NCBI GenBank assembly: GCA_965248835.1
Contig: CBDFLJ010000002.1
Location: 288,001-352,000 of the forward strand
DNA from: Alphaproteobacteria bacterium
GTDB taxonomy: Bacteria; Pseudomonadota; Alphaproteobacteria; MPNO01
DNA length: 64,000 nucleotides
Direction: 5' to 3'
A model generated the notes under the pieces. That model worked only from the letters and a program-made list of their open reading frames with translations. It had not been told where the DNA came from and ran no database searches. Every line of letters starts with the position of its first letter. Position 1 is the first letter of the stretch. Shown here in pieces: positions 1 to 3,442 of this stretch. Both the position numbers and the translations under genes were made by a program.

Positions 1-79
1 GAGTCTGCCATCCGACGGCCTTTCGGATCAGGCCTTTCGGAGTCACAATGGCGGGTGAAACATCCGTGTGAGGCAAGCG

Positions 80-904
80 ATGCCCAAGATCCTGACCGAG
101 GCCCAGATCGATCAGTTCTGGAACGAGGGCTATGTCTTCCCGCTCGATTGCTGGACGCCTGCCCAGGCGGCCGACGCACGCGCGAAGCTGGAGGCCTACG
201 AGCGGACGCTCGACGATGACATCCACAAGCACCTGCGGGTTAAGGTGCATCTGAGCTTCATGTGGCTATGGGATCTGGCCCACAACCCCAAGATCCTCGA
301 CGCCGTGGAGGACCTGATCGGTCCCGACATCCTGCTTTACCTGTCGACCCTGTGGTTCAAGGACGCCCATGACGGTCGTTTCGTCTCCTGGCACCAGGAT
401 TCGGCCTATTATGGGCTCGACCCGCACGACGTGATCACGCTGTGGTTCGCGTTCACCGACTCCAATGCCGGCAACGGCTGCGTCCAGATCATCCCCGGCA
501 GCCACAAGGAGCCGGACTATCAGCACGTCGAGACGTATGCCGCGAAAAACCTGCTGGCGCGCGGCCAGTCGATCAAGGACATCGATGAATCGAAGGCCGT
601 CAAGCTCGAGCTCAATGCCGGCCAATTCTCGATGCATCACGAGCGTCTGATCCACGGCTCGGAGCCCAACGATTCCGACGATCGCCGGCTCGGCATGTCC
701 TTCACCTACCTGCCCACCCGGGTGCGCTGCAACCTGCCCGACCGTACGGCGGTCCTGGTGCGCGGCAAGGACGAGTACGGTCACTGGAAGTACGACCCGG
801 CACCCCGCCACGACCTTGACCCGGTGTGCATGGAGGTCATGCGCTATTGGATCCAGGGCTACGCCGATCCGACCGTCGCCCAGGAGGCGGCCCGAGCGGG
901 ATGA
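80..904 (+). CDS. Phytanoyl-CoA dioxygenase (PhyH) family Fe(II)/2-oxoglutarate oxygenase
   Basis: SWHQDSAYY (HxD), NGCVQIIPGSH and distal RLIHGSEPN-x-RR motifs; ATG at 80 chosen over GTG at 68. Confidence 0.85.
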   Translation: MPKILTEAQIDQFWNEGYVFPLDCWTPAQAADARAKLEAYERTLDDDIHKHLRVKVHLSFMWLWDLAHNPKILDAVEDLIGPDILLYLSTLWFKDAHDGRFVSWHQDSAYYGLDPHDVITLWFAFTDSNAGNGCVQIIPGSHKEPDYQHVETYAAKNLLARGQSIKDIDESKAVKLELNAGQFSMHHERLIHGSEPNDSDDRRLGMSFTYLPTRVRCNLPDRTAVLVRGKDEYGHWKYDPAPRHDLDPVCMEVMRYWIQGYADPTVAQEAARAG

Positions 905-935: not shown

Positions 936-1388
936 CTAAGGCAGCCCGTCCAGATCGGCGAGCACCTGGTCGGGGTGGTCGGCCGGCTTCACGCTGTCAT
1001 AGGCGCGTGCGACCTTGCGGTCGGGGCCGATCAGCACTGATTTGCGCGGCGCGCGCGCGGCATCGGACTCCGCAACCCCGTAGGCGACCGTCGCCCAATG
1101 GTCCTGATCGCTCAGCAGGTCATAGGGGAAGCTGAACTTCTCCCGGAACTTGCGGTTGGTTTCGGGCGTGTCGTAGCTGACGCCGAGGATGACGGTGTCG
1201 CGCTTGGCAAAATCCTGGATTCGATCACGGAACCCCTGGCCTTCGCTGGTTCACCCCGGTGTGTCGGCCTTGGGGTACCACCATAGCAGGACATATCTGC
1301 CGGCAAAATCATCGAGCGAGACCGTGGCACCGTCCTGGTTGGTCAGCGAAAAGGCCGGTGCGTCGCTGCCGGCTTCGATCAAGGACAT
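936..1388 (-). CDS. bcp: BCP/PrxQ-type peroxiredoxin with in-frame UGA at the peroxidatic position (probable selenoprotein)
   Basis: Hand translation MSLIEAGSDAPAFSLTNQDGATVSLDDFAGRYVLLWWYPKADTPG*TSEGQGFRD...ILGVSYD...FPYDLLSD...PRKSVLIGPD...DGLP; AAAGGAGG RBS; TGA at 1253-1251 (codon 46); the rest of the frame is open to TAG at 938-936. Absent from the ORF track. Confidence 0.9.
1217..1235 (-). promoter_or_regulatory. Candidate bacterial SECIS hairpin
   Basis: Minus strand GGGUUC-CGUGAUC-GAAUCC, a 6-bp stem with a GU-containing loop starting about 15 nt after the UGA. Confidence 0.6.
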
Positions 1389-1607
1389 CGAACCTCCTTT
1401 GCATCATTGCCGCGGGGGGTGCGGCGGGGGCCGCGCAGCTTAGCCCAAATTCACCGACCCGCCACCTGATCGCCAGCTTGTCGCCAGCCTGGAATGGACG
1501 ACCGGACCGCGATAGGATCGCCCGGCAGCGGGACCGCCGGCTGCGTTCCGGCAAGCTCTTGATGCGCAAGAGTTATCGCCCCACCGACCAAGACCTCCAG
1601 GGATTTG

Positions 1608-2519: not shown

Positions 2520-3442
2520 CCGCCGCGCGGGTCTTTACCGTCCCCGCGCCGCGCCAGCGCCACGATGCGGTCATGGAGGACGGCGCGGTCATCACCTTGC
2601 GGCGCCACGGCAACCCGGACGGGCCGCGGCTGATGCTCGCCCACGGCAACGGGTTCGCAATCGATGCCTATTACCCGTTCTGGCGCCTCCTTGCGGGCGG
2701 CTGGGATCTGGTGATCTACGACCAGCGGAACCACGGCTGGAACCCGCTCCATGACGCCGCCCGGCACGACCTGAAGCGCTTCGTCGCAGACCTCGACCGG
2801 CTGCGCACGGTCGTCGACGACCGGTTCGGCGCCAAGCCGACCGTCGGGGTCTTCCATTCGATCTCCGCGATCACCGCGATCTGGCACGCGCTGGACTGCG
2901 GCTGGCGGTGGAACGGTCTGGCGCTGTTCGATCCGCCGCTGATCCCGAGCCCCGGACATCCCCTGCACGAGGACGCAAGAGGGTTCGAACTCGGCCTGGC
3001 CCAATGGGCGGCGAGCCGTCCGGACCGGTTCGTCGATGTCGCGAGCCTCGCCGCGCGGTTCGCGGCATCCAGGAGCCTGTCCGGCTGGGTGAGGGGCGCT
3101 CACGAGCTGATGGCGCGCGCGATCACCCGCGAGGACCCGGCGACGGGCGAGCGTGTGCTGTGCTGCCCGCGCGAGGGCGAATCCCGGGTCTATGCGACCA
3201 ATGCCGGGCTCGATCTGTGCCCGCGCCTGGGCGGACTCGCCGGCCCGGTCATGCTGATCGGCAGCGACCCCGAGGCGCCCCGCGCCCTGGCTCCGGGCCG
3301 GGTCAACCGCGCGATGCATGCCGAGCACGGGCTCGACTGGACGCCGATCGCCGGTACCTCGCACATGCTCCAGGTCGAACGCCCAGAGGCGTGCGCGGAT
3401 GCGCTGAAGGCCTTCCTCGAGCGGCTGGGCCTCGGCCGCTGA
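2516..3442 (+). CDS. Alpha/beta hydrolase (tandem paralog)
   Basis: GTG overlaps the upstream TGA (GTGA); AHGNGF, DQRNHG, GVFHSISA, GTSHMLQVE. Confidence 0.85.
   Translation: MTAARVFTVPAPRQRHDAVMEDGAVITLRRHGNPDGPRLMLAHGNGFAIDAYYPFWRLLAGGWDLVIYDQRNHGWNPLHDAARHDLKRFVADLDRLRTVVDDRFGAKPTVGVFHSISAITAIWHALDCGWRWNGLALFDPPLIPSPGHPLHEDARGFELGLAQWAASRPDRFVDVASLAARFAASRSLSGWVRGAHELMARAITREDPATGERVLCCPREGESRVYATNAGLDLCPRLGGLAGPVMLIGSDPEAPRALAPGRVNRAMHAEHGLDWTPIAGTSHMLQVERPEACADALKAFLERLGLGR

Follow-up and report, generated by a model that had tools for sequence, protein, structure and literature searches.

Does the in-frame TGA at codon 46 of a peroxiredoxin-like gene from an uncultured alphaproteobacterium terminate translation, or is it decoded as selenocysteine (Sec), and what protein would then be made? 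The gene is located at positions 936–1388 of the minus strand of a stretch of 64,000 nucleotides (contig CBDFLJ010000002.1, positions 288,001–352,000, assembly GCA_965248835.1); the whole of this stretch is referred to as the window. Our analysis indicates that the gene very probably encodes a selenocysteine-containing peroxiredoxin of the BCP/PrxQ type, belonging to the known selenoprotein family listed as "Prx, TxxU". The TGA is beyond chance: it is conserved in every one of 100 orthologous loci, and the hairpin that follows it is paired in every one of 87 distinct sequences.

The gene and its in-frame TGA

The gene consists of 150 codons, with an ATG at 1386–1388, the Sec codon at position 46, and a TAG stop at 936–938. 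Direct reading of the sequence revealed a Shine–Dalgarno motif, AGGAGG (1393–1398, minus strand), 4 nt 5' of the ATG; GGAGG is retained in two orthologues from the same genus. The single internal TGA (1251–1253, minus strand), found in the context YPKADTPG-U-TSEGQGFRD upon translation of 936–1388, occupies the Cys column of the P-x-x-x-T-x-x-C motif, i.e., the peroxidatic position of P39-x-x-x-T43-x-x-U46. Under translation table 11, the list of open reading frames contained solely a 45-residue stub at this locus (1251–1388, minus strand). The translated protein has no Cys, and the Arg of its PRKSVLI segment, R115, was invariant in an alignment of 30 sequences. An earlier sequence-only reading of this DNA had described a 150-residue BCP/PrxQ gene with a ribosome-binding site, invisible among the open reading frames, with a TGA at the peroxidatic Cys, a conserved Arg, and a cysteine-free product; each of these features was recovered.

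The protein was assigned by Pfam to AhpC-TSA (PF00578; E 7.9e-32, 110.3 bits against a cut-off of 26) and Redoxin (PF08534; E 1.5e-18). The best NCBIfam models were those of the BCP-type thiol peroxidase (NF006960, 112.8 bits with a cut-off of 140) and PrxQ (NF053650, 100.1 bits with a cut-off of 260). Since both scores were under the cut-offs, the protein is filed here as BCP/PrxQ-type and not as an equivalog, and its subfamily placement rests on Pfam, sequence matches in the PDB, and the fold.

Orthologues were sought in 40 genomes of the window's order, besides the window's own genome, and in a second scan with one genome per species, where 250 relatives were found and the best 80 loci were retained. 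Both searches, pooled with some duplicates, gave 100 orthologous loci (91 distinct proteins), 88 of which matched the first motif pattern and the other 12 a relaxed pattern. The sequence-only reading had suggested a search for homologues with TGC or TGA at this codon; the peroxidatic codon was TGA in all 100 loci, and neither TGC nor TGT occurred. An orthologue with exactly one internal TGA was present in 32 of the 40 relatives at 62–86% identity: in every genome of the same family (19) and of a second one (7), and in 6 of 7 from a third. The other eight relatives had only a Cys homologue of about 40% identity or no match. Nearly all of the best 80 loci came from metagenome-assembled genomes labelled Rhodospirillaceae, Rhodospirillales, or Alphaproteobacteria. 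When the class was sampled evenly, an orthologue was found in 4 of 250 genomes, every one with TGA. The suggestion that such a protein would be unusual in Alphaproteobacteria thus holds for the class at large but not for the order of the window, where most relatives carry it.

Cys-type paralogues fetched from the relatives had a Cys codon at the site in 14 of 14 cases (13 TGC, 1 TGT). Within the window's genus, the Sec peroxiredoxin was the sole BCP-type homologue found at E <= 1e-20 (three of three genomes). Among the best 120 database homologues, the Sec position was given as W in 75 (TGA translated under code 4) and as C in 37, and 8 entries began just after the site. At an identity of at least 53%, the corresponding numbers were 73 W, 8 truncated, and 2 C, nearly all C forms being below 53%. 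NCBI entries of orthologues, cut short at the TGA, are 103–104 residues long and named "redoxin domain-containing protein" (e.g., P0081, P0094). The W reading and the truncation are both products of gene callers confronted with an in-frame TGA; mis-calling therefore runs systematically through the family.

In four public runs, the assembled contigs covered 1251–1253 with identical letters throughout; the TGC or TGT that reads might have brought to light at this codon did not appear. In each of these runs, the contigs are interrupted precisely at the core of the hairpin described below (1213–1245). Summed depth there was about fourfold higher (80 versus 21 in X1), and the loose end led into different sequence in two runs. 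Such breaks fit a 31-mer common to several related organisms in the sample.

The reading frame downstream of the TGA was examined by the ratio of nonsynonymous to synonymous divergence (pN/pS), calculated for 600 random pairs among 92 distinct orthologous sequences. The 40 codons that precede the TGA gave 0.28, and codons +1 to +55 past it, with the hairpin excluded, gave 0.33. Both halves evolve as coding sequence, and the downstream frame is under the same purifying selection. According to the structural model discussed below, both halves are also required for the predicted peroxiredoxin fold.

The hairpin after the UGA and the selenocysteine machinery

The putative selenocysteine insertion sequence (SECIS) lies within the coding sequence at 1207–1246 (minus strand) and consists of a lower stem, an internal loop, and an upper hairpin. 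The upper hairpin (1217–1235, minus strand) has a 6-bp stem, GGGUUC/GAAUCC, and a 7-nt apical loop, CGUGAUC, at 1223–1229. This is the stem with a GU-containing loop that had been predicted about 15 nt past the UGA, and it does start 15 nt after it. The RNAalifold consensus for 57 nt from the UGA in 87 distinct sequences included a lower stem (columns 10–13/42–45), an upper stem (columns 19–24/32–37), and a 7-nt loop. The upper stem was paired in all of these sequences; 95.7% of cells were paired, versus 11.6–57.4% when the 3' partners were slid by 1–3 columns. In one orthologue (L091), a compensatory change from U-A to C-G was found in the upper stem, at the expense of two amino acid changes, and in 13 sequences a G-U pair was replaced by A-U or G-C. 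The corresponding site of the 14 Cys paralogues, which served as a negative control, was variable in sequence and had no common hairpin.

The choice of synonymous codons across the hairpin was nearly invariant. All 91 sequences had TTC for the Phe at +7, compared with a mixture of TTC and TTT (about 2:1) at the remaining invariant Phe positions; all 92 had CGT for the Arg at +8, although 5–6 codons are in use at Arg positions elsewhere. The Asp at +9 was GAT in 89 of 92 and the Ile at +11 was ATC in 91 of 91. Accordingly low synonymous divergence was observed at codons +6 to +12 (pS 0.25 versus 0.69–0.74 in the flanks). This synonymous freeze (codons +7 to +11) is stronger evidence for the hairpin than covariation.

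The published model of the bacterial SECIS (bSECIS), as given in the legend of Fig. 2 of PMC13188914, has an apical loop of 3–9 nt with G in the first two loop positions, an upper stem of 4–16 bp, a spacing of 16–37 nt from the UGA, and a minimum free energy of <= -7.5 kcal/mol. The hairpin of the window lies within the four ranges (7-nt loop, 6-bp stem, 21 nt from UGA to loop, and -14.2 kcal/mol for the 52 nt past the UGA), and its loop has G at position 2 followed by U. The fold check that the sequence-only reading had suggested was thus favorable as to the bSECIS model but not as to energy compared with shuffled sequences (see below); hence, the support for the hairpin is comparative, not energetic.

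The same stem with a CGUGAU(C/A) loop was found in all six genes of a second TGA-bearing peroxiredoxin clade, with a G-U pair changed to G-C in three of them. The members of this clade (L135–L140 in G039, G037, G025, G028, G031, and G034) have 40–49% identity to the window protein and are absent from its genome. In their active-site motif, F-P-R-A-F-G-x-N-U-T, Gly takes the place of the Thr in PxxxTxxU. One copy (L139, from G031) also contains an in-frame TAG and TAA and may be a pseudogene. CCGUG also started 22–27 nt from the U of UGA in 6 of the first 10 candidate selenoprotein genes of other families in the window's genome, three of the six being AhpD-like paralogues and so mutually non-independent. 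The background at this distance was 830 of 109,113 TGA triplets genome-wide (0.76%). With such enrichment in unrelated candidates, the loop of the peroxiredoxin gene matches the organism's own SECIS pattern.

The genome (4.89 Mb, two contigs, C1 and C2, with the window on C2) contains selA, selB, selC, and selD, the set whose presence had been proposed as a check. The selA (559 bits) and selB (444 bits) genes are adjacent on C1, both above cut-off, and the gene for tRNA-Sec lies 2 kb beyond them (74.7 bits, above cut-off; typed as SeC with anticodon tca by ARAGORN). The selD gene (309 bits, above cut-off) is elsewhere on C1 (G000:C1:494681-495598, minus strand; G000 denotes the window's genome). 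Its product is a 754-residue fusion (L010 1390-3654, minus strand), in which SelD is preceded by an NADH-dehydrogenase-like domain and has C-G-G-C in place of Sec. An Ndh-SelD fusion of this kind was described from the metagenomes of the Global Ocean Sampling (GOS; PMC2398784).

All 41 genomes of the order sample encoded selA; Sec decoding is thus general in the order. Co-occurrence within the order is therefore non-discriminating, and the class-level sample was used instead. There, selA was present in 33 of 250 genomes (13%), including all four that hold the orthologue; these genomes are related, not independent, and thus no p-value was attached to the co-occurrence.

Fold, active site, and alternative explanations

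The AlphaFold2 (AF2) model of the protein had a mean confidence (pLDDT) of 94.6 and a thioredoxin fold, in which a helix (residues 46–55) begins at Sec. The top Foldseek matches, with template modelling (TM) scores of 0.87–0.90, were BCP/PrxQ proteins (M. tuberculosis BcpB, Sulfolobus Bcp1, and Xanthomonas PrxQ) and the 1-Cys peroxiredoxin AhpE. Sequence matches in the PDB had E values from 8e-20 to 1e-13, the best being Bcp1 (3drn, E 7.8e-20). Pro39, Thr43, Sec46, and Arg115 make up the canonical peroxidatic site.

The resolving Cys of the atypical 2-Cys cycle is typically located five residues after the peroxidatic Cys, and 1-Cys peroxiredoxins lacking it are known peroxidases. Of 91 distinct orthologues, 63 had no Cys and 28 had a single one at scattered positions, never at +5; C-x4-C was found in 10 of the 14 Cys paralogues of the relatives. 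The absence of Cys from the window protein and of a Cys at +5 in its orthologues points to a mechanism of the 1-Cys type. The proposal of a 1-Sec enzyme with no resolving residue therefore stands and extends to the family.

In the mechanism that we propose, the hairpin 15 nt past UGA-46 would act as a bacterial SECIS and recruit SelB with Sec-tRNA(Sec), so that the UGA would be read as Sec and not as a stop. Sec-tRNA(Sec) would be made by SelA with selenophosphate from the Ndh-SelD fusion. The product would be a 150-residue enzyme of the thioredoxin fold, in which helix alpha2 would begin with Sec46, adjacent to Thr43 and Arg115. Sec46 would attack a hydroperoxide and be converted to the selenenic acid (Sec-SeOH). 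The oxidized Sec would then be recycled by an external thiol (thioredoxin, glutaredoxin/glutathione, or similar) in a "1-Sec" cycle; an external partner would be needed because the protein is without Cys. The peroxidase role and the type of reductant are suggested here by what is known of the family.

Several observations weigh against this interpretation. Insertion of selenium at U46, expression of the gene, and peroxidase activity are matters that we infer. Covariation in the hairpin is thin, the stem being near-invariant and the two-sided change in the upper stem being confined to a single sequence, and 31 of the 87 sequences lacked the lower-stem pair 9–46. Taken singly, the window's sequence had a folding energy no better than that of shuffled ones (z-score 0.47; 134 of 200 shuffles at least as stable), and a scan of window positions 1100–1400 against Rfam gave no match at E <= 10. 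The cut-off of the NCBIfam BCP equivalog was not reached (112.8 versus 140). The four runs belong to one sample of one study, possibly the source of the assembly, and may thus be no independent confirmation of the TGA. Finally, the assembly was rated 9.5% contaminated, and the sel genes are on a different contig from the peroxiredoxin gene. This last concern is mitigated by the single-contig genome G002 of the same genus, in which the orthologue and selA are on one chromosome.

The TGA could in principle be a nonsense mutation, the mark of a pseudogene, or an error of sequencing or assembly, with a 45-residue stub or nothing being made. The table 11 frame does stop at codon 46, and NCBI-annotated relatives (P0081, P0094) are called as truncated proteins of about 103 residues. 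Yet the codon is retained in all orthologous loci across the order and beyond, selection downstream (0.33) is close to that upstream (0.28), the contigs of the four runs have no variant letter, and the modelled fold needs both halves. We consider this explanation next to impossible and reject it, since it is effectively refuted by the conservation of the TGA. It is also very improbable, if slightly less so, that the UGA is read through as another amino acid, be it Trp (in a reassigned code) or Cys/Trp (through near-cognate suppression). The W in 75 of 120 database homologues speaks for Trp, but code 4 was evidently fitted to short contigs there. TGA is an ordinary stop in this lineage: it terminates each of the three neighbouring genes with Pfam support, 29 of 47 long frames in the window, and 41 of the 91 orthologues themselves, which excludes a reassigned code. 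Trp is, moreover, unable to replace a peroxidatic residue that is Cys in all distant homologues. The conserved SECIS-type hairpin, the complete Sec machinery, and the occurrence of selA in four of four orthologue holders of the class sample (13% overall) also argue for Sec. The code-4 reading was rejected on the grounds of normal TGA stops, the hairpin, and the machinery.

The remaining alternative accepts Sec but not the peroxidase: the protein might function in a redox relay or be a thiol/selenol oxidoreductase acting on another substrate, possibly with another selenoprotein as a partner. It would agree with the lack of a resolving Cys, the score below the BCP equivalog cut-off, the presence in the genome of some 12 candidate redox selenoproteins to which no function has been assigned, and the loss of the motif Thr in the sister clade. 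On the other side, the Pro39/Thr43/Sec46 triad and Arg115 are kept in the clade of the window, the fold matches BCP/PrxQ (TM 0.87–0.90), and AhpE, a 1-Cys peroxidase that does without a resolving Cys, is among the top structural matches. We regard such a function as improbable, though somewhat less so than read-through, and retain the Sec peroxiredoxin as the preferred interpretation.

Known relatives and the wider selenoproteome

The family to which the gene belongs has been recorded repeatedly, notably in the surveys of Kryukov, Zhang, and Gladyshev. "Peroxiredoxin (Prx)", pfam00578, with the TxxU motif had 12 members in the genomes of 2006 (PMC1794560, Table 1) and 91 genes in 78 organisms in 2016 (table in PMC5029168). 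In 34 GOS samples, 253 Sec sequences of Prx were listed, making it the sixth most abundant family (PMC2398784, Table 2), and in 2021 the share of Prx among 4,324 marine selenoprotein genes was 7.1% (PMC9402790). It was filed under COG1225 (Bcp) in the table of a 2022 review (PMC9312934) and is also tabulated in PMC13188914. The window gene has the same Pfam domain, the TxxU motif (T43-P-G-U46), a peroxidatic Sec, and a SECIS directly downstream. It fits the family, which is abundant in marine metagenomes, on every tested feature; the gene is genuine, though of a kind already known.

The earlier statement that Sec peroxiredoxins exist in some bacteria is therefore correct, as the family has been established since the Sargasso/GOS surveys (PMC2398784, Table 2), but the novelty of the protein was overstated, Prx TxxU being among the most abundant selenoproteins of ocean metagenomes. 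The remark that Sec use in Alphaproteobacteria is mostly associated with formate dehydrogenase agrees with the 2006 survey of cultured genomes, which gives FdhA as the one selenoprotein family of this class (PMC1794560), but fails for the lineage studied here. We failed to find a statement that assigns marine Prx to Alphaproteobacteria; the word occurs 0 times in the available text of PMC2398784 and PMC9402790. Nor did our literature search reveal a mechanistic description of a bacterial Sec peroxiredoxin, and the portion of PMC10298544 at hand contains no such protein.

Cys-type BCP/PrxQ proteins (the E. coli BCP type of NF006960, X. campestris PrxQ, Sulfolobus Bcp1, and M. tuberculosis BcpB) have the same fold (TM 0.87–0.89) and share the P-x-x-x-T-x-x-C frame and the conserved Arg with the window protein, which differs in having Sec for the peroxidatic Cys and no resolving Cys at +5. 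AhpE of M. tuberculosis (1xxu, 4x0x), a small peroxiredoxin fold of monomer size (TM 0.88–0.89) that functions without a resolving Cys, is a mechanistic analogue for the 1-Sec cycle; however, it has Cys and not Sec, belongs to another peroxiredoxin subfamily, and has only 26–27% identity. PrxU, a selenocysteine peroxiredoxin of Eubacterium acidaminophilum reportedly described by Sohling et al. in 2001, is said to have Sec at the peroxidatic site. It represents another subfamily: its model (NF040737) has 233 positions, compared with 150 residues here, and the window protein scored 40.4 bits with it, while 270 are needed.

Judging by TGA codons in expected motifs, about 12 genes of the genome are candidates for redox selenoproteins, including that of the peroxiredoxin. 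Two peroxiredoxin-like candidates of the AhpC/TSA type have one in-frame TGA each, in a W-U-P-x-C motif of the UxxC form (G000:C1:454940-455308, plus strand; G000:C1:758331-758714, minus strand). In both, a hairpin whose loop contains G-U follows, 16–20 nt past the UGA, and the second one has a hydrophobic, signal-like N-terminus. Another AhpC/TSA-like candidate (G000:C1:1772426-1772875, plus strand), with the motif G-S-Y-T-U-P-P and a hairpin whose CGUGC loop begins 20 nt past the UGA, resembles the deiodinase-like selenoproteins in its S-Y-T-U-P-P motif. A SelW-like (Rdx) candidate with C-V-A-U (G000:C1:1326342-1326539, plus strand) and five AhpD-like candidates with C-x-x-U (G000:C2:185526, 1306197, 2091171, 2106016, and 2479778) have a hairpin after each TGA. 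Two more AhpD-like candidates with C-x-x-U (G000:C1:746915 and G000:C2:280977) were recognized by the CCGUG-hairpin pattern alone; the window starts about 7 kb beyond the latter.

Although no selenoprotein is commoner in bacteria than FdhA, a Sec-type FdhA was not found in the whole genome: there was no formate dehydrogenase match with an internal stop or at the TIGR01553 cut-off. GRDB/PrdB (PF07355) had no match in the genome either, but none was obtained in any control genome, so that this negative is uninformative.

The neighbours of the peroxiredoxin gene in the window were identified by Pfam as a PhyH-family dioxygenase (68–904, plus strand), which is convergent with it, and two tandem paralogous alpha/beta hydrolases of Abhydrolase_6 (1605–2519 and 2546–3442, plus strand), which are divergent from it; all three genes end on TGA. 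Being alone on its strand, the peroxiredoxin gene looks monocistronic.

For annotation, the consequence is that standard pipelines miss the gene, and no NCBIfam model reaches its cut-off; a family-specific model would mend hundreds of annotations in metagenome-assembled genomes. The Cys-free protein offers a clean natural case for comparing the chemistry of Sec and Cys in peroxiredoxins, and the near-invariant 19-nt core of the SECIS, which two paralogous clades have in common, provides a small natural element with which SelB–SECIS specificity could be studied. The understanding of Sec decoding itself is unchanged by the window gene.

As a tentative proposal, which we hold to be possible but on balance doubtful, this uncultured, mostly marine order may keep its Sec machinery for a redox selenoproteome other than formate dehydrogenase. 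This would comprise about a dozen proteins (Prx, two Prx-like, a deiodinase-like, a SelW-like, and about seven AhpD-like ones) with a lineage-typical SECIS whose CGUG loop lies 20–24 nt past the UGA. The Sec peroxiredoxin would be an obligate 1-Sec enzyme that dropped its resolving Cys on acquiring Sec and may be recycled by another selenoprotein rather than by thioredoxin. Apart from this proposal, the result for the window gene and its genome corrects the textbook impression that Alphaproteobacteria use Sec for formate dehydrogenase only. Its main value, of modest interest, lies in annotation and in the rich non-formate-dehydrogenase selenoproteome of an uncultured alphaproteobacterial order.

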